Sequence record: PQ306573.1
From: Escherichia phage vB_EcoM_PTE-Eco05
Direction: 5' to 3' (one strand)
DNA length: 64,000 bases
Part shown: positions 5,333-34,986 of the stretch, one piece after another
Numbering within the stretch: position 1 is the first letter of the stretch
Layout: each line of letters starts with the position of its first letter
Made by a program: the position numbers and the translations under genes
The notes under the pieces: model-generated
What the model saw: only the letters and a program-made list of their open reading frames with translations
Told to the model about the DNA's origin: nothing
Databases searched by the model: none

Positions 5333-5968
5333 ATGAAAACTACACCAATCACTATCGCTATTGACGCAATCGTAAAACAAGCTTCATCTCTTGCCACTAT
5401 GGCTAAAGTAATTAGTCAAAACCCTGCTCGGTATAATGCTATTCTTGAAACTCTTCGTCGCCCTGGACTGAGTAATTATGAAAGTCGTGTAATTATTACA
5501 GGTGTTGGTAAGAACGCTAATATCGCAACTAAAGCTTCCGAGACTTTTGCTTCACTAGGTATTCCTAGCATGTATTTGAACACTGGGCATTATTCTCATG
5601 GTGACGCAGGATTTATTGCACCTAATGATGTATTAGTTCACATCAGCCGTTCTGGTAAGACTGAAGAAATGATAGGTGTTGCTAAACATCTTCGTATGAT
5701 TCGTCCTCAGGTTAAACAGATTCTGTTACATTGTAACCCTGACATTCCACAAGAATACGAAGCTCTTTTTGATTATACGTTCTGTACTGGTATCGCGGTA
5801 GAAGTTGACGAGAACTCTTTAGCTCCGACAATGTCTACTACATTGTTGTTAGCGCTTATCGATACGTTCGCTATCAACCTTTCGTCTGAACGTGGATTTA
5901 CCTCTAATGATTTCCTTAAGTTCCATCCAGGCGGTGCACTAGGTGCCATGTTACGAGGCGAACAATGA
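5333..5968 (+). CDS. SIS-domain sugar-phosphate isomerase (KpsF/GutQ arabinose-5-phosphate isomerase-like)
   Basis: 211 aa; SIS-type Rossmann pattern (VIITGVGKN, HISRSGKTEE) and C-terminal HPGGALG typical of KpsF/GutQ-type isomerases. Confidence 0.7.
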   Translation: MKTTPITIAIDAIVKQASSLATMAKVISQNPARYNAILETLRRPGLSNYESRVIITGVGKNANIATKASETFASLGIPSMYLNTGHYSHGDAGFIAPNDVLVHISRSGKTEEMIGVAKHLRMIRPQVKQILLHCNPDIPQEYEALFDYTFCTGIAVEVDENSLAPTMSTTLLLALIDTFAINLSSERGFTSNDFLKFHPGGALGAMLRGEQ

Positions 5969-6108
5969 AAGCAATATCAATAGGACTTTTACTATTGATG
6001 CTTGTCATGACTATCTACTGGAGCTTAACGGCTCCAGTAATGATTCCAACACTTGTAATTGGATGGATTATGATTGGACTACAAGCAAAGTATGAATGCT
6101 TTAACTAG
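5965..6108 (+). CDS. Small hydrophobic membrane protein (47 aa, two predicted TM segments)
   Basis: ATG overlaps upstream stop (ATGA); highly hydrophobic MKAISIGLLLLMLVMTIYW...; below the 60-aa cutoff of the ORF track. Confidence 0.35.
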   Translation: MKAISIGLLLLMLVMTIYWSLTAPVMIPTLVIGWIMIGLQAKYECFN

Positions 6109-6149
6109 AATAGTGTACAATACTCCTACTTACCAATGAGGACTTCAAC

Positions 6150-7835
6150 ATGAAAAAAGCTGTTATTCTTGGTGCTGGACTGGCAACTCGTTTGTATCCA
6201 ATAACGCATCATATTCCTAAGGTGCTTGTTAACTATAAACAAGACACTATTCTGAGCAATTTGTATACAATTTATTCTGACCTTGGCGCAGATGAAATTA
6301 TTGTAGTAGTTCATTCAAAATTTGCTGAAACTGTTCGAGCTTATTGTGAGCAAGAAGGGTTCAATGTGACTATTCGTACAGTTGATGAAGCGTATGGTTC
6401 TGCTTATGCTCTTGCTAAATTACACAAAGATTTAGACGGCCATAATGTAATTGTTAACTGGTGTGATATTATTCCCGATTTTGGTTCATGGTCTTGGAAT
6501 GTTAACGCAATCTATGTTAAGGGTGATGAATGTCGGTATAATTTCGATGGTGAAAATATCACTAATGTAGGTGAAACAGGCGGTAATGTTGTAGGAATTT
6601 ATCAGTTCAAAGACTGGGAATTCTATATGGGTTCTACCGATGAGGAAATTCATGAATACTGCAAAGGACGTGATTTCGTAGAATTCCTTTACGGCAGCAC
6701 ATTCAATAAATCAGAGCTTATGAATCTAATTGATTTAGGTGATATGCCTAAACTTGAAAAGGCCCATGAAGTTCGTGAACTGAACCGTAGTTTTAATGCA
6801 GTTGAAATTGGCGAAGAAACTGTAACTAAATTCGCATTAACCGAACAGGGTCGAGCTCTTCAGAAAGATGAGATTTCGTGGTATTTGAAAGTGAAATCAG
6901 ATTCAGTTCCTCAGTTAGTTTCTGTTAATGAAAATAACTTTGAAATGGAACGCATTAAAGGTAAGCCGGCATTTGAATATATTAAATCAAAATCAAGTCT
7001 TGCTCGTCCACAAATTATTGATGCAATTTTAGATGCACTGAAATTCAGCACAGACACTTATTTTGTAAGTCCTGAAACTGTTCGTCGTGATTTCACTAAA
7101 GAATTCTATACGAAAGTTATTGATCGTTGTGAAAGCATTCAACCATTGATTGATTCATTTGGTAAAATCACACATGTGAACTACACTAAGATTGGACGTC
7201 TGAAGCCAATGCTGAAACAAGCTTTAGAACACCTTATTCGTTATCATAACCGTTCTCAGGGACAGTACTCTGTTATTCATGGTGACCCGAACTTCAGTAA
7301 TACTATGATTACTGATAACGGCGAAGTCAAGTTTATCGACCCTCGTGGATATTTTGGCGAAACCAAGATTTACGGGCCAAAATTGTATGATGAAGCTAAA
7401 GTGCTTTACGCTGTTTCAGGTTATGATGAATTCAATGCTAATCCGACCTGGGGACAGTTTACTATTGATGAAACAACTTGTAATGTGACTATTAACATCA
7501 ATCCATTAGTTTACAAATATGGAAAGATGAGTTCGTTTAACGAGTATCATCATTTGGCAGTGGCAATTATCTGGATTGCATTAGGTGGTTATTTCAAGAA
7601 TAATCCACTTAAAGCGGTAGCCGCATATTATAAAGGTATGGAACTTCTGACTAAGCAATTACGTAATATGGGCCGTGTACTTCAAGACGGCTCTATTAGT
7701 TATGACGTAGCAGAACCTGTAACGGCTACTCTGATTACAAAAAATCCTGGTAAATGGGTACTAACTGATAAAGAAACTGGTGTTTCCTATCGTCCAATCG
7801 GTGGCGATATCACTCATCAATGGGAACGAATCTAA
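6150..7835 (+). CDS. Bifunctional sugar-1-phosphate nucleotidyltransferase (N-terminal) / APH-choline-kinase-fold sugar kinase (C-terminal)
   Basis: 561 aa; N-terminal MKKAVILGAGLATRLYPIT..PK.LV nucleotidyltransferase signature; C-terminal HGDPNFSNTMI...FIDPRGYFG kinase catalytic loop (Brenner HGD..N plus D). Confidence 0.7.
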   Translation: MKKAVILGAGLATRLYPITHHIPKVLVNYKQDTILSNLYTIYSDLGADEIIVVVHSKFAETVRAYCEQEGFNVTIRTVDEAYGSAYALAKLHKDLDGHNVIVNWCDIIPDFGSWSWNVNAIYVKGDECRYNFDGENITNVGETGGNVVGIYQFKDWEFYMGSTDEEIHEYCKGRDFVEFLYGSTFNKSELMNLIDLGDMPKLEKAHEVRELNRSFNAVEIGEETVTKFALTEQGRALQKDEISWYLKVKSDSVPQLVSVNENNFEMERIKGKPAFEYIKSKSSLARPQIIDAILDALKFSTDTYFVSPETVRRDFTKEFYTKVIDRCESIQPLIDSFGKITHVNYTKIGRLKPMLKQALEHLIRYHNRSQGQYSVIHGDPNFSNTMITDNGEVKFIDPRGYFGETKIYGPKLYDEAKVLYAVSGYDEFNANPTWGQFTIDETTCNVTININPLVYKYGKMSSFNEYHHLAVAIIWIALGGYFKNNPLKAVAAYYKGMELLTKQLRNMGRVLQDGSISYDVAEPVTATLITKNPGKWVLTDKETGVSYRPIGGDITHQWERI

Positions 7836-8221
7836 TGCACCGTGTAGAAAACATGCTTAATCTTTGTTTTGATGTCGATGATTGTATAACAGAGTGGAAT
7901 AACAATCGTGATTACGTGAACTTCAAACCAGACGTCGAAATGGTGTCTGCCATTAATGCTCTGTATGATGCAGGGCATACCATAACGCTTTACACTGCTC
8001 GCGGTATGAAGTCAGTAGGTCCTGGTCGTATAGCAATTGACATTCTCCCAAGTCTGATTCAGAACTTGGCAAACATTGGCTTGAAGTACCATAATTTGCT
8101 AACACATAAACCAGTATATGATTGGATTATCGACGACAAAGCTATGCGTCCTGACGAATTCAAAGCTCTTATGAATAAAGGCGAATTCGAAACATTTAAA
8201 TCGTATAAACCGAATCTATAA
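7820..8221 (+). CDS. HAD-superfamily phosphatase (KdsC-like small sugar-phosphate phosphatase)
   Basis: N-terminal FDVDDCIT (DxDx[TV] motif I of HAD enzymes); start may instead be the ATG at 7835 overlapping the upstream stop (TAATG). Confidence 0.6.
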   Translation: MGTNLMHRVENMLNLCFDVDDCITEWNNNRDYVNFKPDVEMVSAINALYDAGHTITLYTARGMKSVGPGRIAIDILPSLIQNLANIGLKYHNLLTHKPVYDWIIDDKAMRPDEFKALMNKGEFETFKSYKPNL

Positions 8222-8269
8222 TAATTTAAGTAAGACCTGCAAAAAAACCATCGCATCAATTAACGCGAG

Positions 8270-9439
8270 ATGCAAAAAATGAATACTTTTAAAATCGGAA
8301 CGAATTTTGATTTAGCTCTTCTTGATAAAATCGTAGAGCTCAATAAAACTTATCCTAATAGCTTGATAAATGAAGTATACGGCTCTACAAGAGAAATGGC
8401 TTTTGTAGCAGCCAGACCTGATTTTAGGCTTCCTGACGTTGACAAAAAGATGTTAGAAGATTACGTTAAACGTTGTAACGAATTAGGTATTTGCTTTAAC
8501 TATACACTCAACACGATAAATCCTGGTTCAAAAAGAGAACTAGTTGAGTGGAAGAAGAAAGCTATTCAGGATTATGTTCAGTATCTTTGGTCAATAGGCG
8601 TATGGCGTATTACTATCGCTAACCCTGTTGTTATGGAAATTGTTCGTGAAGTCAATAAAGACATTGAGATTGAAGTTTCAACAATTCTACATGTCGATGC
8701 TGTAACTCAAATCAAATACTTGCATGACCAGTATAATATCAAAAAGGTCTGCTGTGGAATTCATAAGAACCGTTCAGTTTCTTTCCTGAAGCGTGCAGCA
8801 GAGTTTTGCAATAAGAACAATATAATATTTGAAGTTCTTGTAAATGAGTTCTGTTCTAATGCTGGTAAAGGGTATACAACACATTGTAGCTATCGTGACT
8901 CTTGCTATATTTTCCATAGTACTGATGTTACAGCTGATGATGCTAAATCCTTAAACGGATATCCTATGCAGCACTGTATTAAAGCTCGTGATACAGACCC
9001 ATTTAACTGGTTGAGAACTCGTTTTGTTCGTCCTCAAGATTTGAAACTTTATAATGATATTGGTATCACTCAATTCAAAGTTTCAGGACGTACAGGTAGC
9101 ACAGACTACATTTTGAAAGTTCTTGAAGCATACGCTTCTGAAAAGTTTGAAGGTAATTTGTTAGAACTGTGGAAGCCTTTAGAGACTATTTTCACTCTTG
9201 AAAACGAAACTGAGTTTTCACATACAGTAAATATTGAAACCTCTTTGTTAGATGGCTTTTTAGAAAAAAGGTGGTTCAGACATCCAGATTTCGATTGTGC
9301 TAATGAAATCTGCGGGACGACGTGTACATATTGTGAAAGATATTATAAACGTCAATTATCTAAAAACGGGTTAGCAGAAAACTCTATATCTATTATTGAT
9401 ATAACTAACTCTGATGACGCTTTGAGGTACCCGGAATGA
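8270..9439 (+). CDS. Cys-rich protein, possibly a TIM-barrel Fe-S enzyme (U32-peptidase-family-like); function unknown
   Basis: 389 aa; alternating beta/alpha-like N-terminal pattern, conserved Cys clusters (EFCSNAGKGYTTHCSYRDSC; CANEICGTTCTYCERYY); family assignment tentative. Confidence 0.5.
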   Translation: MQKMNTFKIGTNFDLALLDKIVELNKTYPNSLINEVYGSTREMAFVAARPDFRLPDVDKKMLEDYVKRCNELGICFNYTLNTINPGSKRELVEWKKKAIQDYVQYLWSIGVWRITIANPVVMEIVREVNKDIEIEVSTILHVDAVTQIKYLHDQYNIKKVCCGIHKNRSVSFLKRAAEFCNKNNIIFEVLVNEFCSNAGKGYTTHCSYRDSCYIFHSTDVTADDAKSLNGYPMQHCIKARDTDPFNWLRTRFVRPQDLKLYNDIGITQFKVSGRTGSTDYILKVLEAYASEKFEGNLLELWKPLETIFTLENETEFSHTVNIETSLLDGFLEKRWFRHPDFDCANEICGTTCTYCERYYKRQLSKNGLAENSISIIDITNSDDALRYPE

Positions 9440-9675
9440 TTTCTAGAAAAACTTTTAACCACCAACTTAATGAAGAGATTTTGACTATGAAACTGAACAC
9501 TAACGAACAAATTCTTAAAAGGGCCCTGATGGGCCTGTTTGAAACTAAAGCGGCTAAAGTGATTAAAGAACCTGTTCAATTGGAATACTACGCTGATGCA
9601 TTTCTTCATAGTGTTCTTGGAAGTATCGGTGCTGAAGCTTTACGTTATATCAACATTGTCAAGAAATTCAAATAA
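9436..9675 (+). CDS. Hypothetical protein (79 aa)
   Basis: ATG overlaps upstream stop (ATGA); in-operon position. Confidence 0.45.
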   Translation: MISRKTFNHQLNEEILTMKLNTNEQILKRALMGLFETKAAKVIKEPVQLEYYADAFLHSVLGSIGAEALRYINIVKKFK

Positions 9676-9698
9676 GCTTTACGAATTGAGTATATAAT
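9675..9698 (+). promoter_or_regulatory. Candidate MotA-dependent middle promoter upstream of gene 42 (AGCTTTA box, about 11 bp, TATAAT)
   Basis: aagctttacgaattgagtaTATAAT seen in sequence; MotA-box match imperfect (A for T at first position). Confidence 0.35.
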
Positions 9699-9717
9699 AA
9701 ATTGTATTGAGGTAAAC

Positions 9718-10434
9718 ATGGGAAAACATAACACAATGAAATATATCAAAGCCGCAGATTTTCAAGCCGCATTTAAAGCAGTCAATCGTGAAATTTTAGA
9801 AAACCCGGAATTCGTAACTGATTCTCGTATTGGACGTTGTAATGAAATTGGGTCTATGACAGTAGTTGTTGACACTCCATCATCATTCAAAATGACCGAC
9901 CCACGTATTAACCGCATCTCTTATGAATATGCCGAAGACTTCTGGAAGTTTATGATTTCTGGTGGTACCAACGCAGAAGAAGCGTTTAAGGCATATCCTA
10001 ATGTCGCTAAATTTATTTCTAAACCAAAATCAGATGTTTTGCCGGCGAACTTCAACACTTTCTATGGTCCTCGCATTGCGGCCCAATTACCAGCTCTTCT
10101 AAAAGAACTTAAAGAGAAGCCTAACTCTCGAAGAGTTGTGTTCCAAATTCTAGAAAGTTCTGATCAGGCTTTGCTTGATTCAGACGAAACGCTTGAATAT
10201 CCATGTACTGACTCAGTGACTTATTATATCCGTGATGGTAAGCTTTATACCCACTGTCATATGCGTTCTCAGAACTGCGCTGTTGTTATGCAGTTGGATT
10301 TTTATCTCCAAGGAAAATTACTTCATTATATCGCTAACGAATGCGGTGTAGAAGTTGGTGATTATACTCATACCATGGTAAGTGCCCATGTGTTTGAACG
10401 TGATTTTGATTATGTTAAAGGATTCCTTGACTAA
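9718..10434 (+). CDS. 42: dCMP hydroxymethylase-like enzyme (thymidylate synthase superfamily), gp42 position
   Basis: 238 aa; TS-fold catalytic region YPCTDSVTYYIRDGKLYTHCHMRSQN (active-site Cys, RSxD-like); located between gene 43 block and uvsX as T4 gene 42. Confidence 0.7.
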   Translation: MGKHNTMKYIKAADFQAAFKAVNREILENPEFVTDSRIGRCNEIGSMTVVVDTPSSFKMTDPRINRISYEYAEDFWKFMISGGTNAEEAFKAYPNVAKFISKPKSDVLPANFNTFYGPRIAAQLPALLKELKEKPNSRRVVFQILESSDQALLDSDETLEYPCTDSVTYYIRDGKLYTHCHMRSQNCAVVMQLDFYLQGKLLHYIANECGVEVGDYTHTMVSAHVFERDFDYVKGFLD

Positions 10435-11333
10435 TGGCTATTTTCCGCGTACCAATCTTGAGTATGCGGTCTTATGAAACTGGACAGTATGCTATCCTTA
10501 AGGATGGCAACTTCCAACTTCATTTGCACCGTGCTAATCCGGGTGATGTGATTACATATCCACGTAATGCATCTGATATTAAAGAATGCGAACGTCTTTT
10601 TCCAGAATTTAAGTTTGTTCCATTATGGTATAAAGATAACGCGTATAACACTCGTAAATATTTCTGGTCTGAAAATGAATTTGTGGTTGATTCATTAATT
10701 GCTTATTATGATTGTGATTTTCTAATCACAGATATCACTGGATATGACGGCGCTTTTGATGTGGAATTCAATTTCAATATCACTGCAGACCCTAATAAAC
10801 CACGTTTTTATATTGACGAATTCTTAAAAACTGATATGTTGTCGGTTAATCGTTCACTTCAAACTACTGTGTTGAATGAACGTCAAAAAGAAGTGCTGGT
10901 TAACGCAGGTGCAGATGGTAATAAGATTATCGTAACGCAGAAAGTTATACGTCCTTCCATCATGCAGCGTCTTGTAGGTGATTTGGCTCCTATTTATCTA
11001 GATGGTATTTTTCATCCATTTCGAATTAGTGACCCGTGCTATCGTTTTGAACAAGTGGTTGAATGTGCAATTCAATTAGGCCAACCGCTTTATATAACCG
11101 ATCCAAATAATAGCTTCGACAGAAATAAGTATCCTGAAGAAGCGCTGATTCGAATTTTTAAACCAACTAAAACAGAGTACTATCAAATTCTTAAAGGGCG
11201 TCCTAAAATTCAATATTTCGAAAATCCTGAAGAAGTATTCCATCCAGGTCTTGGTGAGTTCATCTACTTTAATGCTTTAATTTCTTCGCCGTATAATATA
11301 CCTAAATATGAAGATGTCGTAATCGAGGAATAA
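10434..11333 (+). CDS. Hypothetical protein occupying the T4 beta-glucosyltransferase slot; candidate DNA-modification enzyme
   Basis: 299 aa; start overlaps gene 42 stop; no similarity to T4 beta-gt that I recognise. Confidence 0.55.
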   Translation: MAIFRVPILSMRSYETGQYAILKDGNFQLHLHRANPGDVITYPRNASDIKECERLFPEFKFVPLWYKDNAYNTRKYFWSENEFVVDSLIAYYDCDFLITDITGYDGAFDVEFNFNITADPNKPRFYIDEFLKTDMLSVNRSLQTTVLNERQKEVLVNAGADGNKIIVTQKVIRPSIMQRLVGDLAPIYLDGIFHPFRISDPCYRFEQVVECAIQLGQPLYITDPNNSFDRNKYPEEALIRIFKPTKTEYYQILKGRPKIQYFENPEEVFHPGLGEFIYFNALISSPYNIPKYEDVVIEE

Positions 11334-11334
11334 A

Positions 11335-11883
11335 ATGGCTAAAATTATTTTAGTAGATGGCCCAGATAATGCTGGTAAAACAACTTTCATTAATGACATA
11401 ATGGAAATTAGTGAAAGATATGTAAAGATTGATTTCCCTAAACGAACAGTTGATGGGCGTTTCGATGTTAAGTCTCGAAATGAAGTTGGCTGCTTCGAAA
11501 CGATGTTGAATTATTTAGACCCTACTAAGATTTATCTGTTAGACCGTGGATATATTAGTAACTGGGTTTATGGACGTATTCGACAAGATGCGGACTCGGT
11601 TCTTGACGTTTATGAACAGGATTATGTTCGTCTTTGCCAAAACCATGATGTGTTCACAATTATTTTAACACGTAACGAAATGACTGAAAGTTTTGAAGAC
11701 GACCTTATTACTTTGTCCTCATTCGGTTTTAATACAGTCATTTCACATTTTGAAGAGTTTGCAATTCATAACAAAATCCAAACGTATCAATTACTTAATC
11801 ATGATGGTGCTAACAAAGTTATAGGATTTAATGCAAGCGAACGTAATTATTTGATTACAGAAATTATCAAATGGGCTCGTTAA
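11335..11883 (+). CDS. P-loop kinase, thymidylate-kinase/dNMP-kinase-like
   Basis: 182 aa; Walker A GPDNAGKTT and a DRGY motif resembling the TMK DRY motif. Confidence 0.55.
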   Translation: MAKIILVDGPDNAGKTTFINDIMEISERYVKIDFPKRTVDGRFDVKSRNEVGCFETMLNYLDPTKIYLLDRGYISNWVYGRIRQDADSVLDVYEQDYVRLCQNHDVFTIILTRNEMTESFEDDLITLSSFGFNTVISHFEEFAIHNKIQTYQLLNHDGANKVIGFNASERNYLITEIIKWAR

Positions 11884-26600: not shown

Positions 26601-26630
26601 GTTTACAACCAAGGATGGTTGGAGTATAAT
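26601..26630 (+). promoter_or_regulatory. Early-type promoter (GTTTACA, 17 bp, TATAAT)
   Basis: Near-consensus GTTTACA and TATAAT seen directly. Confidence 0.55.
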
Positions 26631-26660
26631 GAATTCAACTTAAACAAAGAGAGAAAAAAT

Positions 26661-27125
26661 ATGATTAATATTGGTGAAATTAAACGTGTATCGACAGCGT
26701 CTCGTTCTAAAGCTGCAGGAAAGCTGGTTGAAGTAGTAGGACTTCGTACTAATGGCATGGGCCGTATTAAAGAAGTTAAAGTTCGAATCATTCCTAGTTC
26801 TGGAAAAACTGAAACTCAGTTCGCCTATGTAAGTCCTAAATTCTTTGAAACTCGTGTAAGTGCCCACTTTGCTTCAAGCGATATCGTTGAGCCTACTACA
26901 CAGTTCAAATGGGCCCTTTGCAAAGGCGTTGAATTTATAACCGATAAAGAATTTGATTACATCGACGAATACGGCTATCCAAGCACAACTGATACCATGT
27001 GTGGCTTCATTAGTGACCAATGGGTTGAAGATGGTGAAAAGTTATACAATATCGTATTCTTAGGTGACTTCCGAGTTGTTAAAGAATCTGAAATCACTCG
27101 CTATGTGTCTCCTCGTAAAGCTTAA
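26661..27125 (+). CDS. Hypothetical protein, paralog A of a tandem pair
   Basis: Track ORF 26619..27125 trimmed to ATG after gagaaaaaat; shares SRSKxAGKLVEV and GFISDQWVEDGxKLYNIVF blocks with the next ORF. Confidence 0.55.
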   Translation: MINIGEIKRVSTASRSKAAGKLVEVVGLRTNGMGRIKEVKVRIIPSSGKTETQFAYVSPKFFETRVSAHFASSDIVEPTTQFKWALCKGVEFITDKEFDYIDEYGYPSTTDTMCGFISDQWVEDGEKLYNIVFLGDFRVVKESEITRYVSPRKA

Positions 27126-27134
27126 GGAATTATT

Positions 27135-27554
27135 ATGAATATTGTAAATCTCTCTACAGGTAATTACGTATATGTATCTGTTGCTTCTCGCTCTAAAGTT
27201 GCCGGGAAGTTGGTTGAAGTTCTTTCTGTGAGTGATCCGGTTTTTGGACGTAACGAAGTTAAAGTTCGTGATGCTAATGGTAATATTGGCTACGTCTCAA
27301 GCCAGTTCATTGAGCCAGAAGAACGTGCGTTCAAATGGAAACTGTGCAGGTCTGTTTTAGTTGTAAAAGACCATGAATTTACTATTGCTGCTGCAACTGA
27401 CGGGTCTCCATGGACAACGAATCAAGTTGCTGGTTTTATTTCGGACCAATGGGTAGAAGATGGTGTTAAGCTTTATAACATCGTTTTCGCTGGACAGTTC
27501 ATGGTAGTTCCTGAGTTCCAAATCAAAAAATATTGTCCAGCATCTTTTGCATAA
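27135..27554 (+). CDS. Hypothetical protein, paralog B of a tandem pair
   Basis: 139 aa; same conserved blocks as the upstream ORF. Confidence 0.55.
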   Translation: MNIVNLSTGNYVYVSVASRSKVAGKLVEVLSVSDPVFGRNEVKVRDANGNIGYVSSQFIEPEERAFKWKLCRSVLVVKDHEFTIAAATDGSPWTTNQVAGFISDQWVEDGVKLYNIVFAGQFMVVPEFQIKKYCPASFA

Positions 27555-29506: not shown

Positions 29507-31324
29507 ATGATTAAAAATGAAATTAAGGTATTGTCAGATGTAGAACATATTAAGAAACGTAGTGGTATGTATATTGGTTCTTCTGCTAAAGAAGCACATG
29601 AGCGTTTTTTGTTTGGTAAATATCAACAAGTTGAATATGTTCCTGGTCTGGTTAAATTAATCGATGAGATTATTGACAACTCGGTTGATGAAGCTATTCG
29701 TACATCATTTAAGTTTGCAAATAAAATTGATGTGCAAATTAAAAATAATCAAGTTTCGGTGGAAGATAACGGACGTGGTATTCCTCAAGGTTTAGTTACC
29801 GACCAAACAGGTGAACAAATTCCTGGGCCTGTAGCAGCCTGGACTATTCCAAAGGCTGGTGGTAACTTTGGTGATGATTCTGAACGCAAGACTGGTGGTA
29901 TGAACGGCGTCGGGAGTAGTTTAACTAATATCTTCTCTACGTTGTTTACAGGCATCACGTCAGATGGCGAAAATGAAATCACTGTTAACTGTTCAAACGG
30001 AATGGAAAACAAATCATGGTCTTCTAAGAAATCTAAAGGTAAAGGCACTAAAGTAATCTTCACTCCTGATTTCACTTCATTTGAAGAGCATAATTTATCT
30101 CAAATTTATTTAGATATTACTTTAGACCGACTTCAAACATTGGCAGTCGTTTATCCTGATATCAAGTTCACATTTAATGGTAAAAAGGTTGATGGTAATT
30201 TTAAACGATTTGCTAAACAATTTGGTGAAGATAACATCATTCAAGAAAATGATAAAGTCTCTATAGCATTCACAACATCACCCGATGGCTTCCGTCATTT
30301 AACTTATGTGAATAACATCCATACTAAAAATGGTGGTCATCATGTTGAATGTGTAATGGATGATATCTGCGAACATCTTTTACCGGGTATTAAAAAGAAA
30401 TATAAGGGTATTGAAGTCACTAAAGCTCGTGTTAAAGAATGCCTCACAATGTTGATGTTTATTAGAGACATGAGCAACATGCGTTTTGATTCTCAGACTA
30501 AAGAACGTTTAACGTCAACGTATGGTGATATTCGTAATCATATCCAATTAGATGCTAAAAAAATTGCTCAGGCACTTCTTAAAAACGAAGCCTTGATTAT
30601 GCCTATTGTTGAAGCAGCATTAGCTCGTAAATTGGCAGCAGAAAAGGCTGCAGAAACTAAAGCAGCTAAAAAGGCAACTAAAGCTAAGGTTCATAAGCAT
30701 ATTAAAGCTAACCAATGTGGTAAAGATGCAGATACGACATTGTTCTTAACAGAAGGTGATTCTGCAATTGGTTATCTCATTGATGTTCGTGACCGTGAAC
30801 TACACGGTGGATTCCCATTACGTGGTAAGGTGATGAATAGCTGGGGTATGTCATATGCTGATATGATGAAGAACAAAGAGCTCTTCGATATCTGTGCTAT
30901 CACAGGTCTTATTCTTGGTGAAAAGGCAGAGAATACGAACTATCGTAATATTGCAATTATGACCGATGCCGATCACGACGGTCTTGGAAGTATTTATCCT
31001 GCTTTGCTTGCTTTCTTTAGTAATTGGCCCGAATTGTTTGAACAAGGACGTATTCGCTTTGTTAAAACACCTGTAATTATTGCACAAATTGGCAAAACTC
31101 AAAAATGGTTTTATACTGTAGCTGAGTATGAAGAAGTTAAAGATACACTGCCTAAGCATAGTATTCGATACATCAAGGGATTAGGCTCCCTTGAAAAGTC
31201 AGAGTATCGTGAAATGATTCAGAACCCTGTGTACGACGTAGTTAAACTTCCTGAAAATTGGAAAGAACTCTTTGAAATGTTGTTGGGTGATGATTCAGAA
31301 CTTCGTAAAGAATGGATGTCCTAA
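29507..31324 (+). CDS. 39: DNA topoisomerase II large subunit, unsplit gp39 (GyrB-like ATPase plus Toprim plus C-terminal segment)
   Basis: 605 aa; GHKL ATPase N-terminus, Toprim LFLTEGDSA and MTDADHDG, C-terminal YIKGLGSL...ELFEMLLGD (GyrB tail) all in one ORF. Confidence 0.9.
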   Translation: MIKNEIKVLSDVEHIKKRSGMYIGSSAKEAHERFLFGKYQQVEYVPGLVKLIDEIIDNSVDEAIRTSFKFANKIDVQIKNNQVSVEDNGRGIPQGLVTDQTGEQIPGPVAAWTIPKAGGNFGDDSERKTGGMNGVGSSLTNIFSTLFTGITSDGENEITVNCSNGMENKSWSSKKSKGKGTKVIFTPDFTSFEEHNLSQIYLDITLDRLQTLAVVYPDIKFTFNGKKVDGNFKRFAKQFGEDNIIQENDKVSIAFTTSPDGFRHLTYVNNIHTKNGGHHVECVMDDICEHLLPGIKKKYKGIEVTKARVKECLTMLMFIRDMSNMRFDSQTKERLTSTYGDIRNHIQLDAKKIAQALLKNEALIMPIVEAALARKLAAEKAAETKAAKKATKAKVHKHIKANQCGKDADTTLFLTEGDSAIGYLIDVRDRELHGGFPLRGKVMNSWGMSYADMMKNKELFDICAITGLILGEKAENTNYRNIAIMTDADHDGLGSIYPALLAFFSNWPELFEQGRIRFVKTPVIIAQIGKTQKWFYTVAEYEEVKDTLPKHSIRYIKGLGSLEKSEYREMIQNPVYDVVKLPENWKELFEMLLGDDSELRKEWMS

Positions 31325-31340
31325 GCTCCTTCGGGAGCTT
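31324..31340 (+). terminator. Stem-loop (agctcc ttcg ggagct) after gene 39, weak T tract
   Basis: 6-bp stem with UUCG loop, followed by cattttaatttt. Confidence 0.45.
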
Positions 31341-31366: not shown

Positions 31367-32467
31367 ATGAAAGTTATGTTTATCCCATCTCGCGCAGTCC
31401 CATTTAACCCAGAACGTGTACAAGGTGGTCTTGAAGCAGTACATTTAAATGTGTTGAAATATTTAGTTTCTATCGGTGCCGATATTGATTATATTGGTTT
31501 TGATAATGACACGTTTGGTGACTGGAAAGTTAATCATCATCCTGTTGGTCATCTGACTAAATTCAGTCTAGGTATGAGTTATACTATGGCTCGTAAGATT
31601 GTTGAACTAGCCGGCATTAATGAGTACGATTTCGTTGTTACAATGGAACCGACCAAACTAACCGTTCAGGCAATTAAAGACGCAGGTCTCTCTAAAGTTC
31701 ATAAGAATTTTATGGCAACACCATTTGAACCAGTATCTCGTGGCATTGTTCAAATTTGGGACCAGACTATTCAAATTCGTAAGAACGGTGGTAAGAGTTA
31801 TGCTCCTACTAAAGCCTTCCGTGAATTTGAACGCAAATATTGTTATATGACTTCAGGTCTGACTGACAAAATTGATTATGATTATTGGCGAGCAAATCCG
31901 TTGTTTGAAACCGAAGATTATCCGGTTATTTGTTTGAATGAGAAACCTGAAGTTCTTCCGGCGACTGATCTGATTATTAGTGCACAACGTTATGACACTA
32001 AAATGCGTCGTACTGATGTTGCTCTTGAAGCGATTAAAGCACTAGGCGAAAATGGTGTAGGATACTGTCCTAGTAAATGGGCACCACCGGCTAAGTATCC
32101 TGTTATTATTGATGCTCCACACAGTGAAATCATGGAACGTCTTAAAACAGCTAAAGCACTTATCAATACGTGTCCTGACACGGGTACGGTAGAGAATAGT
32201 TCTATTGAAGCCATCTCTAAAGGTGTCCCTGTGATTCAGTTAGTTTTTAAGGATTATCCGCACGCGACATTCGAATACGACCCAGATACTGTGCGTGTAG
32301 AAATTGATTCCTCTACTCCTAAGAAAGAAGTAGTTGCGCTTTACACAAAAGCTGTATTAGAATTCACTGACACATACGAAGCTCGAGTTAAACGTGCTGA
32401 AGCCGTATGGAAGAAGTATAACCGAGATGCAGTTGTTGCGATGTGGGATAAAATCTTCACAGCGTAA
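31367..32467 (+). CDS. GT-B fold glycosyltransferase (GT4/GT5-like); candidate DNA sugar transferase
   Basis: 366 aa; N-terminus MKVMFIPSRAVPFNPERVQGGLEAV resembles the xGGL donor-binding start of GT4/GT5 enzymes; C-terminal TGTVENSSIEAISKGVPVI resembles the E-x7-E/PVI motif. Confidence 0.6.
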   Translation: MKVMFIPSRAVPFNPERVQGGLEAVHLNVLKYLVSIGADIDYIGFDNDTFGDWKVNHHPVGHLTKFSLGMSYTMARKIVELAGINEYDFVVTMEPTKLTVQAIKDAGLSKVHKNFMATPFEPVSRGIVQIWDQTIQIRKNGGKSYAPTKAFREFERKYCYMTSGLTDKIDYDYWRANPLFETEDYPVICLNEKPEVLPATDLIISAQRYDTKMRRTDVALEAIKALGENGVGYCPSKWAPPAKYPVIIDAPHSEIMERLKTAKALINTCPDTGTVENSSIEAISKGVPVIQLVFKDYPHATFEYDPDTVRVEIDSSTPKKEVVALYTKAVLEFTDTYEARVKRAEAVWKKYNRDAVVAMWDKIFTA

Positions 32468-32483
32468 ATCCTGAATCGCCTGA

Positions 32484-32534
32484 GGCACTATTACACATAA
32501 GATGATAGATTATATGGTCTTTAGTAATAGTGCC
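32484..32534 (+). repeat. 11-bp perfect inverted repeat (ggcactattac ... gtaatagtgcc) with 29-nt loop
   Basis: Seen directly between the glycosyltransferase gene and the next ORF. Confidence 0.6.
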
Positions 32535-32559
32535 CTAGGAATCTACTGAAGAGAATATT

Positions 32560-32760
32560 ATGAGAACATATAACGTGGACTTGGAACTTTTTGATAAAGC
32601 AGTGCTCCGGGAATTCCGGCTTATCCAAAGATTTTTTGATATCGAATCAGCAGAGTCCTTTAAAGAACGCTTTAAAGAAATTCGATATAAAATACAAACC
32701 GATACAGCTACTAAAGAAGAACTTCTTGAAGTAGCAGAAATTTTTAAACGTAACTTGTGA
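32560..32760 (+). CDS. Hypothetical small protein (66 aa)
   Basis: ATG after gaagagaatatt; upstream of rIIA. Confidence 0.45.
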   Translation: MRTYNVDLELFDKAVLREFRLIQRFFDIESAESFKERFKEIRYKIQTDTATKEELLEVAEIFKRNL

Positions 32761-32772
32761 TGAGAGAAAAAT

Positions 32773-34986
32773 ATGATTATTGAAACGGCTAAAGAAACGA
32801 TTATTGGTTCAGGCGGTAAGAGCACAGCATTCACTATTCAAGGCAATAGCAAAGTTTATAAGATTTTGTCTAATGACCTTTATACAAACAAAGAATTGGC
32901 TTGTGTACGTGAATTAATCACAAACTGTATTGATGGACAAATTCTTAATGGTTGCACTGATAAGTTTATTGTTCAGGCTCCAGGTCGTTTAGACCCACGT
33001 TTTGTAGTTCGAGACTTTGGTCCTGGTATGAGCGATTTCACCATTCGAGGTAATGACGAAGAGCCAGGAATCTATAACTCATATTTTGCTTCAACTAAAA
33101 CATCGAGTAACGATTTCATTGGTGGATTCGGACTCGGCTCTAAAGCTCCACTAGCATATACTGATACGTTTAACCTTACGTCTTATCACAACGGTGAAGT
33201 TCGTGGTTACGTAATCTACCAAGATGACACGGGTCCCCAGATTAAGCCGACCTTCGTAGATAAGATGGGTCCTGATGACCGGACCGGCGTTGAAGTAGTT
33301 GTGCCTGTTAACCCAGAAGATTTTGAAAAGTTCGCATCCGAAATTGCTTATGTTATGCGTCCTCTCGGCGATATTGCAGAAGTTCGTGGTGTTAAAGATA
33401 TCAAATACTTCCCGGAATTCGATGATGTTTATTTAGCCAAGGAAGCTCCATGGGGTGAACGTGGTAATATCATGGCTGTTTATGGTGGTATTGTATATCC
33501 AATCGGAAGTGTTATTAAAGAACAAACATGGATGATGACGCGATGCACTACAGCTTATATTAAATTCCCTATGGGTGAACTAGATGTAGCCCCGTCTCGT
33601 GAAGCATTGTCATTTGATAAACGTACAGTAGCAAATATCCATAAACGTGTTGCAGAAATCGATGCAAAATTATTTGCTGAAGATTCTAAGAAATGGATTG
33701 ATTGTAAATACCCACGCCATGTGTTCCGTGAAATTGATTCTCTTGGTTATACCGCTCGTAAATACATGGAAAAGGCTGGGTCTAATATTGAATCACTGAA
33801 ATACTCTAAAGAACAGCTAACTTATTCCGAGTTGTACAAACGTTTTAAAATGGGACCTGAGTGGTGTAATCTTGGCATCGTATACGATATCGTTGAATCC
33901 CCTCGTCTTCGTCGTATTCGTGAAAGTGGTAGCTCATCATCAACCATTTCAATTAACAGCCTGATTGGCATTAACATTAAAAACGTTGAAATTGTTATTG
34001 ACGACGTTAAGGGACGCGTTCCATTAATGCGAGCTCTTAATTCAATTGAAATGTCTAAAGACGAGGTTAAATTAACCGGTAAAGTTCCACGCGGTTTTGG
34101 TAAAAGCGTACTATTCGTTGACCCTACAGACGAAGATGCAATGAAACTTCTGGAACGCCTTAAAGTTATCTTTGATGGCGATAACATTAACATGTACAAG
34201 ACTTCAGAGCTTTTACAAATCGTTAAGCCATGGATTGAAGTCAGGAAACGAACTAATGAGCCTCGTCCTAAATCCCCAAGTGCTCATCGGTTCTTTAAGA
34301 ATGAAAACGATGTTTGGGTATCGGAAGATCTCTTTATTCCAGCGAGTGAAGCTGATGAAATCCAAGGTTATGCTATAGTTCGTAATCGTTCTAATGCTGA
34401 ATGTCTTGACGCAGATAAAGGTTGGTTGAACTACGACTCTAATTTCTTGACCCGTATTGCCGATTTGTCAGGTATTAAAGAGTTCACTGTAGTCCGTCCA
34501 CAGATTGCTAAGAAAGTTCGTAAACTTGGTGAAGTAGAATGTTTGTTTGAAAAATCAATTAATGACTATATTATGCTAATCGATAAAGTAGATTATGATG
34601 AGTATGTATCACCAAGTCGTAGAGCACAGCCTTATTTGAATCATATTACTCGTAATGAAGAGCTTAACTTCCTTAGTAAGTATTTTAGCTCTAAGAACAA
34701 AGAAATCAGTAAAGACTTTGCAAAACTCTCAACAGTAAATAATCGTTGGGGATGGAATCGATTCGCAGGTGCTACTAATACAGACCTGAATAAGAAGTTA
34801 GAATTGTGTGCTAAAATTTTCGATAAGCTTAAAGATAATGCTTATGATAATGATAATAAAATGGTTATTGAATTCGAAACCAATTATCATATTGTGTCAG
34901 AATACATGGGACGACGTGGTACTCTTTCAAAAGAACAGGTCGCTCAAATCGTTAAATTCATGAAGGCCGTGGAAGCGGCCAAATAA
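32773..34986 (+). CDS. rIIA: rIIA protein (membrane-associated lysis-inhibition / exclusion-escape factor)
   Basis: 737 aa; N-terminal GHKL-like ATPase fold (ELITNCIDG, GGFGLGSK); paired with rIIB. Confidence 0.8.
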   Translation: MIIETAKETIIGSGGKSTAFTIQGNSKVYKILSNDLYTNKELACVRELITNCIDGQILNGCTDKFIVQAPGRLDPRFVVRDFGPGMSDFTIRGNDEEPGIYNSYFASTKTSSNDFIGGFGLGSKAPLAYTDTFNLTSYHNGEVRGYVIYQDDTGPQIKPTFVDKMGPDDRTGVEVVVPVNPEDFEKFASEIAYVMRPLGDIAEVRGVKDIKYFPEFDDVYLAKEAPWGERGNIMAVYGGIVYPIGSVIKEQTWMMTRCTTAYIKFPMGELDVAPSREALSFDKRTVANIHKRVAEIDAKLFAEDSKKWIDCKYPRHVFREIDSLGYTARKYMEKAGSNIESLKYSKEQLTYSELYKRFKMGPEWCNLGIVYDIVESPRLRRIRESGSSSSTISINSLIGINIKNVEIVIDDVKGRVPLMRALNSIEMSKDEVKLTGKVPRGFGKSVLFVDPTDEDAMKLLERLKVIFDGDNINMYKTSELLQIVKPWIEVRKRTNEPRPKSPSAHRFFKNENDVWVSEDLFIPASEADEIQGYAIVRNRSNAECLDADKGWLNYDSNFLTRIADLSGIKEFTVVRPQIAKKVRKLGEVECLFEKSINDYIMLIDKVDYDEYVSPSRRAQPYLNHITRNEELNFLSKYFSSKNKEISKDFAKLSTVNNRWGWNRFAGATNTDLNKKLELCAKIFDKLKDNAYDNDNKMVIEFETNYHIVSEYMGRRGTLSKEQVAQIVKFMKAVEAAK

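Follow-up and report, generated by a model that had tools for sequence, protein, structure and literature searches.

The subject of this analysis is an open reading frame (ORF) at 31367..32467, on the plus strand of a 64,000-nucleotide stretch (the window) of the genome of Escherichia phage vB_EcoM_PTE-Eco05 (PQ306573.1). Its product, hereafter the target, is a GT-B glycosyltransferase (GT) that is likely to add the second arabinose to arabinosylated cytosines in the phage DNA. The phage is a Mosigvirus (RB69-like), with ∼97–98% DNA identity to many Mosigvirus phages. The ORF has an ATG start, with an AAGG Shine-Dalgarno-like element 7 nt 5′ of it, and encodes 366 aa. It is flanked by a gene 39 topoisomerase homologue (29507..31324) and by rIIA.1 (32560..32760), downstream of which lie rIIA (32773..34986) and then rIIB. 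The same interval of T4 holds rIIA.1, 60, 60.1 and mobA and no transferase; thus both the location between gene 39 and rIIA and the difference from T4, as put forward in an earlier reading of the letters alone (the sequence-only reading), hold. The features of the locus are:

31323..31340, plus strand: hairpin of 7 bp with a UUCG tetraloop, directly 3′ of the gene 39 stop codon and 26 nt before the target ATG; terminator-like by a simple scan
31367..32467, plus strand: target GT-B glycosyltransferase, ortholog of RB69 ORF003c/gp3, of HY126 XAN60436.1 (PDB 9iqz/9ir0) and of Bas46 bas46_0103; proposed chain-extending (second) DNA arabinofuranosyltransferase
32479..32539, plus strand: strong RNA hairpin between the target stop codon and rIIA.1, with an 11-bp perfect stem inside a longer helix

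The gene was found by tblastn in 211 phage records, ∼155 of them from Mosigvirus (Escherichia/Shigella), at 95–100% identity, and ∼55 from Acinetobacter phages, at 40–43% identity. Judged from this conservation, the ORF is clearly a real gene. With a GC content of 0.40 in the ORF and 0.376 in the window, and with the gene fixed throughout Mosigvirus, horizontal acquisition was considered and rejected. The interval 32468..32559, between the target and rIIA.1, folds at −28.5 kcal/mol (z = −4.24; 0 of 200 shuffles fold as well), and the hairpin within it might serve to stabilise or process the mRNA. The neighbouring topoisomerase large subunit (29507..31324) is a single unsplit protein of 605 aa, which in T4 is split into gp39 and gp60. 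The T4 insertion (translational-bypass element, mobA) adjoins the position where Mosigvirus carries the glycosyltransferase.

Fold and family of the protein

The target is 98% identical (360/366) to RB69 ORF003c/gp3 (NP_861693.1), 97% identical to the phage HY126 glycosyltransferase XAN60436.1, encoded at the same locus, and ∼98% identical to the solved PDB chain. In the fold library this chain appears as 9iqz, ‘phage HY126 glycosyltransferase’ (apo), and as 9ir0, ‘with UDP’ (uridine diphosphate), both released in July 2025. The UDP-bound record of the HY126 protein thus provides, by way of an ortholog, binding of a nucleoside diphosphate (NDP)-sugar donor. With the Acinetobacter paralogues described below, at 40–42% identity, these proteins make up the RB69 gp3 sequence family, to which the target belongs.

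A Foldseek search with the target returned 9ir0/9iqz at E 1e-48, followed by PimA, WaaG, BshA and tll1591 at E ∼1e-7, and the target shows the GT-B architecture, in which two Rossmann-like alpha/beta domains enclose a cleft that holds the active site. Foldseek and the two structures therefore confirm the GT-B assignment of the sequence-only reading, including its comparison with glycogen synthase. Conventional searches were far less informative. The target had no Pfam match at E ≤ 10 and no NCBIfam match, and a profile of the six-member target family, run against PDB sequences, found 9iqz as its sole (self) match. PHROG 8302, a family of unknown function, matches over the full length (E 3e-221). 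BLASTP gave no similarity between the target and T4 beta-glucosyltransferase (b-gt; E 6.5), and neither T4 alpha-glucosyltransferase (a-gt) nor b-gt was among the top fold matches. The earlier statement that the target is unrelated to the two T4 enzymes thus stands for b-gt at the level of BLASTP, whilst for a-gt a profile-level similarity, and only that, was described by Thomas et al. 2018 (HHpred E 1.9e-24, RB69 ORF003c against T4 a-gt 1XV5). These results support the classification of the target as a GT-B (GT4-like) glycosyltransferase without sequence similarity to T4 b-gt.

Both terminal segments cited in the sequence-only reading stand unaltered in the translation of the ORF. Invariant positions in the family alignment are G20-G21, within a ‘GGLEAV’ glycine loop, R208, R214, E276 and E281. 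The N-terminal Gly-Gly loop agrees with the GT4/GT5 motifs that had been proposed from the sequence; the C-terminal E-x7-E does not, since E276 and E281 have E-x4-E spacing and the canonical GT4 E-x7-E was not found in the C-terminal domain, the sole E-x7-E lying at 86–94 in the N-domain. The ‘E-A-x-x-x-G-x-P-V’ half of the C-terminal segment fits the usual GT4 pattern. The HY126 GenBank translation (PP658200.1, 2244..3344) reads ‘GVLGIQ’ where the PDB chain and all family members have ‘GVPVIQ’; with P288 and V289 invariant, the genome record is probably in error here.

Our own AlphaFold model of the target had a predicted local distance difference test score (pLDDT) of 60.9 overall, and below 35 for residues 109–187. 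The model is poor because the alignment was too shallow, a search of 5.8 billion proteins having returned five clusters only, and it was kept out of residue-level claims.

Sugar-activation cluster and modified base

An NDP-sugar pathway cluster lies at 5333..11883, 19.5–26 kb upstream of the target. It holds the genes for making uridine diphosphate arabinofuranose (UDP-Araf), a 5-hydroxy-dCMP (5hodCMP) synthase, whose product is the source of 5-hydroxycytosine (5hoC), and a second GT-B protein (the cluster GT):

5333..5968, plus strand: arabinose-5-phosphate isomerase (KpsF/GutQ/KdsD type; RB69 gp55 ortholog); Pfam SIS, NCBIfam KpsF/KdsD at E 1e-30 to 1e-32
6150..7835, plus strand: bifunctional sugar kinase and nucleotidyltransferase (RB69 gp52:53 / HY126 AfhE-like), makes UDP-arabinofuranose; Pfam NTP_transferase in the N-terminal part, weakly kinase-like C-terminal part, NCBIfam uridylyltransferase
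7820..8221, plus strand: HAD-type sugar phosphatase (RB69 gp51 / HY126 AfhF-like), converting Araf-1,5-bisphosphate to Araf-1-P; NCBIfam capsule biosynthesis phosphatase at E 4e-13
8270..9439, plus strand: U32-family protein (RB69 gp50 ortholog); Pfam Peptidase_U32 at E 7e-11, weak UbiU match
9718..10434, plus strand: 5-hydroxy-dCMP synthase of the thymidylate synthase (TS) family (RB69 gp48 ortholog); Pfam Thymidylat_synt, D169N plus N177D; provides the 5hoC base for later arabinosylation
10434..11333, plus strand: cluster-linked GT-B-fold protein of 299 aa (ortholog of RB69 gp46:47 and DLP3 gp79); proposed first (base-proximal, alpha) arabinosyltransferase
11335..11883, plus strand: putative nucleotide (thymidylate-like) kinase (RB69 gp45 ortholog); weak dTMP-kinase match, ‘putative thymidylate kinase’ in Bas46, listed in PMC13326640 Table 1

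The functions of the kinase/nucleotidyltransferase and the phosphatase are those of He et al., as cited in PMC13326640. That the genome would encode an NDP-sugar pathway some 20 kb from the target, with the system divided between loci, had been foreseen in the sequence-only reading, and the gene content supports an arabinose DNA-modification system split between the cluster at 5.3–11.9 kb and the target ∼20 kb away.

The 299-aa cluster GT had no Pfam, NCBIfam or PDB sequence match, and no sequence similarity to the target was found. Its AlphaFold2 model was confident (pLDDT 94.9, from a 47-sequence alignment), and the best Foldseek match was the retaining GT-B enzyme MshA (3c4q), followed by UDP-GlcNAc 2-epimerases, which have the same fold, and other GT4 enzymes. 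The match to 3c4q has already been reported for RB69 gp46:47, which has been proposed as ‘arabinosyltransferase 1’ (PMC13326640).

The identity of the base follows from the TS homologue. In a four-sequence alignment that included E. coli ThyA and T4 gp42, used to map D169, the window enzyme has N at ThyA position 169 (‘MRSQNC’), as does that of Acinetobacter phage DLP1, whereas T4 gp42 has D (‘MRSNDV’). R166 and S167 are conserved, and in place of ThyA N177 the three phage enzymes all have D. Lee et al. 2026 (PMC13326640) give D169N as the mark of 5-hydroxy-dCMP synthases, an activity demonstrated for both RB69 gp48 and the enzyme of HY126 (PMC13326640). The window protein is 97.9% identical to the latter, for which near-identical structures exist (9iqc/9ir2/9iqu); the HY126 enzyme carries a flavin in its crystal structure, and its reaction has been reconstituted with O2 as the oxygen source (PMC13326640). 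Mass spectrometry as well as nuclear magnetic resonance of RB69 DNA identified mono-arabinosyl and beta-D-Araf-(1→3)-alpha-D-Araf-5-hydroxy-2′-deoxycytidine (PMC13326640). The DNA of Mosigvirus NP has the same mono and di species, an earlier assignment as 5-hydroxymethylcytosine (hmC) having been erroneous (Durham paper, PMC13390438). As the window TS homologue carries D169N, the base in this phage is 5-hydroxycytosine, not hmC. The hmC acceptor that the sequence-only reading had assumed, which would call for a gp42-type enzyme with D at this position, is therefore set aside.

The U32 gene next to the synthase may deserve separate attention. U32 proteins such as TrhP, RlhA and UbiU/V are prephenate-dependent, O2-independent hydroxylases. 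In Serratia phage LC53 (21181..22691) a type II chorismate mutase (Pfam CM_2, 44.6 bits) lies between the U32 gene and the 5hodCMP synthase, and a chorismate mutase is likewise annotated beside the U32 gene in the records of Klebsiella phage PWKp16 and Erwinia phage Virsaitis27; at that place the window has a 79-aa ORF (9436..9675) without chorismate mutase similarity. By analogy, the pair of U32 protein and chorismate mutase could form an anaerobic second route to 5-hydroxycytosine. This lead, which is perhaps of greater interest than the glycosyltransferase finding itself, concerns proteins and metabolites (U32, prephenate, chorismate) that go unmentioned in Lee et al. 2026 (PMC13326640).

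Family copy number and the second sugar

The cluster GT occurs in 348 phage records and makes up at least 138 protein clusters; the hosts of these phages include Escherichia, Shigella, Klebsiella, Enterobacter, Serratia, Yersinia, Proteus, Erwinia, Edwardsiella and Acinetobacter. The target family, with its 211 records and five protein clusters, is found only in Mosigvirus and Acinetobacter phages, and is confined to phages with 5hoC/arabinose genes. Serratia phage LC53 shares this cluster (orthologues 60–80% identical) and lacks a target homologue: between its rIIA and gene 39 there are small ORFs only (best local tblastn E 3.5). According to a citation of Mahler et al. 2025, LC53 carries a single arabinose on hydroxycytosine and Bas46 and Bas47 carry two. 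In Acinetobacter phages of the DLP type, the TS homologue, cluster GT and kinase are immediately followed by two tandem target paralogues. The pair share 58% identity, and over the full length of the target they match it at 42% and 40%; being closer to each other than to the target, they are co-orthologous with it. DLP3 DNA bears up to three arabinoses and RB69 DNA one and two, whilst phage Thanatos makes mono-arabinosylated DNA with a single GT (PMC13326640). Thus, with chain lengths taken from the literature, 0, 1 and 2 copies of the target family (LC53, Mosigvirus and Acinetobacter phages, respectively) correspond to 1, 2 and 3 arabinoses, the family being present only where there are at least two and absent from mono-arabinosylated phages.

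This pattern bears on which of the two GT-B proteins acts first. The sequence-only reading had named the target the best candidate for attaching the sugar to the base. Such an initiating role, with the first pentose placed directly on the modified cytosine and the 299-aa cluster protein doing something else, was also the original 2018 proposal for RB69 ORF003c (Thomas et al. 2018), and it agrees with the annotation of the Bas46 ortholog bas46_0103 as ‘putative hmC-arabinosyltransferase’. It draws further on a cluster GT homologue that gave no detectable first-sugar transfer on 5hoC DNA (PMC13326640), and on the UDP-GlcNAc 2-epimerases that appear beside glycosyltransferases in the fold matches of the 299-aa protein. 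We nevertheless consider it quite improbable: LC53, with singly arabinosylated DNA, keeps the cluster protein and lacks a target homologue, and many records from Klebsiella, Enterobacter, Yersinia, Serratia, Proteus and Erwinia phages likewise contain cluster GT and TS homologue without the target; the DLP3 proteins of this family use arabinosylated DNA, and not 5hoC DNA, as substrate (PMC13326640); and, as regards hmC in particular, the base is not hmC. Every arabinosylating phage has the cluster GT (348 against 211 records; at least 138 against five protein clusters), which does not hold for the target. The sequence-only reading, though sound as to the kind of enzyme, misidentified the base and overlooked the cluster GT, and therefore assigned the wrong step.

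The target is instead likely to be a soluble GT-B enzyme that carries out, after replication, the second Araf transfer from UDP-Araf onto arabinosyl-5hoC in DNA. It would bind UDP-arabinofuranose supplied by the phage's own pathway (isomerase, kinase/uridylyltransferase and phosphatase; 5333..8221). The first alpha-D-Araf would be put on the 5-hydroxyl of 5-hydroxycytosine by the unrelated cluster GT-B protein (10434..11333), and the target would then move a second D-arabinofuranose onto O3 of this base-linked alpha-D-arabinofuranose, giving beta-D-Araf-(1→3)-alpha-D-Araf-5hoC. The longer glycan may further shield the phage from host defences that target DNA. The fold is established, as are the ortholog's binding of UDP, the base and the di-arabinosyl structure of RB69 DNA; the second transfer by the target itself we infer from comparative genomics, the in vitro activity of its 40–42% identical co-orthologues and the published assignment. 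In that work, DLP3 gp76 and gp77 together, supplied with UDP-Araf, converted RB69 DNA (mono/di) to tri-arabinosylated DNA in vitro, none of the GTs was active by itself on bare 5hoC DNA, and RB69 gp3 was listed as ‘beta-arabinosyltransferase 2’ (PMC13326640). A deletion of Bas46 Aat, putatively bas46_0103, is reported to be viable and sensitised to a defence system (PMC13216743, citing Mahler et al.). A deletion that is viable but sensitised fits an accessory, chain-extending enzyme. Aat proteins are reportedly described by Mahler et al. as ‘arabinose-5ara-hC transferases’ responsible for the second and third arabinose.

The joint requirement for DLP3 gp76 and gp77 (PMC13326640) also allows for the target being an obligate partner in a glycosyltransferase complex, for example with the cluster GT, and perhaps influencing both sugar additions; PDB 9iqz, which holds several chains, up to chain H, is compatible with oligomers. 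However, Mosigvirus has one family member and no sequence-related partner, the target gene lies 20 kb from that of the cluster GT, mono-arabinosylating phages do without the target, and the Bas46 Aat deletion is reported viable (PMC13216743), so that an obligate partnership is quite improbable. Alternatively, the target could act on an acceptor other than DNA (host envelope, phage protein or small molecule), its link with arabinosylation being coincidental. Its structural neighbours are lipid, lipopolysaccharide, teichoic-acid and small-molecule glycosyltransferases, and in Mosigvirus it sits among early genes, away from the cluster. But both Acinetobacter paralogues lie inside the arabinosylation cluster and modify DNA in vitro (PMC13326640), the family occurs only where there are 5hoC/arabinose genes, and its copy number tracks the length of the DNA glycan; coincidence is thus highly improbable.

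Several points weigh against second-sugar transfer by the target. The assignment of RB69 gp3 in Lee et al. 2026 is a proposal (PMC13326640). As gp76 and gp77 are active only jointly (PMC13326640), a single family member may not suffice, and as no GT was active as first-sugar enzyme on 5hoC DNA, the cluster GT is a candidate initiating enzyme only. The absence of the target from other phages holds at the sensitivity of the sequence search (tblastn E ≤ 1e-5), and confidence in the N-terminal domain of the target model was low. Finally, the nearest structural relatives are retaining enzymes, yet the proposed product bond is beta where that of the first sugar is alpha, presumably from the same donor. 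If the target makes the beta bond, its GT4-like scaffold might work with inversion or with a different donor anomer; or the first sugar might be added at the nucleotide level, leaving the target as the sole DNA-level GT. The latter was considered because the sources consulted show no first-sugar transfer on 5hoC DNA and the cluster GT lies between the 5hodCMP synthase and the nucleotide kinase. We regard these variants as unlikely, if less so than the other alternatives.

The enzyme itself is not new. An arabinosyltransferase role was proposed for RB69 ORF003c in 2018 by hidden Markov model, HHpred and Phyre2 searches (Thomas et al. 2018). The structure has been solved, and publications now cover the locus, the fold, the complex with UDP, the pathway and the role (Thomas 2018; Mahler 2025; He 2026; Lee 2026). 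What remains useful is a correction of annotation, since most of the 200-odd records call the target ‘hypothetical protein’, ‘putative DNA alpha-glucosyltransferase’ or ‘hmC-arabinosyltransferase’, and have ‘dCMP hydroxymethylase’ for the neighbouring synthase. The copy-number rule (0, 1 or 2 copies giving chain length) helps to predict the fate of therapeutic T4-like phages against restriction, CRISPR and glycosylase defences, and how well phage DNA sequences on nanopores.

Two records depart from the usual gene structure. Shigella phage JK45 (MK962757.1, 601..2204), filed under Tequatrovirus despite its Mosigvirus-type genes, has an intact copy followed by a partial second copy, which comprises the C-terminal 139 residues, is 95% identical and is annotated as its own coding sequence (CDS); the explanation is a tandem partial duplication or else, close as this lies to the record start, faulty assembly. 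In Escherichia phage LH01 (PP434429.1, 301..1400) an apparent 1-nt deletion, which is a sequencing error or else a natural knockout, breaks the gene into two CDS of 825 and 177 nt; if the knockout is real, LH01 DNA should carry mono-arabinosylation only. Natural dispensability of the gene, considered on the strength of this frameshift and the JK45 duplication, was rejected, as these are single records and possibly sequencing or assembly artefacts. Elsewhere in the window, in the motB region, the adjacent ORFs 26619..27125 (168 aa) and 27135..27554 (139 aa) are evident paralogues that have in common ‘VASRSK.AGKLVEV’ and ‘GFISDQWVEDG.KLYNIVF’, and are hypothetical in Bas46.

Comparison with known systems

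The closest systems are those of RB69 (gp3), HY126 (XAN60436.1) and Bas46 (bas46_0103), with 97–98% identity over 366 aa, an identical placement between gene 39 and rIIA.1/rIIA, and the same cluster. Only 6–10 aa substitutions separate the target from the RB69 and HY126 orthologs, none of them at family-invariant positions.

DLP3 gp77 and gp76 (read from DLP1: ADLP1_075 and ADLP1_074) belong to the same family, with the same invariant residues at 42% and 40% identity, and put Araf from UDP-Araf onto arabinosylated 5hoC DNA (PMC13326640). The DLP3 pair is needed jointly, adds a third sugar (beta-1,5) and is encoded inside the cluster, whereas in the window phage there is a single copy, 20 kb from the cluster, and its relatives stop at two sugars.

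With the GT4 enzymes PimA, WaaG, BshA, MshA and tll1591 and the GT5 glycogen synthase, the target has in common the GT-B two-Rossmann fold, the N-terminal Gly-Gly loop, an Arg-x5-Arg/Lys at the start of the C-domain and the ‘E-A-x-x-x-G-x-P-V’ nucleotide-binding helix. It differs in its low identity (∼10–15%), in having no Pfam or NCBIfam model, in E-x4-E instead of E-x7-E and in an acceptor that is glycosylated DNA. The linkage proposed for its product is beta, whereas GT4 enzymes retain configuration.

The T4 alpha- and beta-glucosyltransferases (GT72 and GT63) are likewise soluble phage GT-B enzymes that use a UDP-sugar to glycosylate, after replication, a modified cytosine in DNA and so protect against host nucleases. 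Unlike in T4, the sugar is arabinofuranose and not glucose, the base is 5hoC and not hmC, and the acceptor is probably a sugar hydroxyl and not the base. With such an acceptor, the target would be functionally closer to the beta-alpha-glucosyltransferase of T2/T6 that builds gentiobiose.

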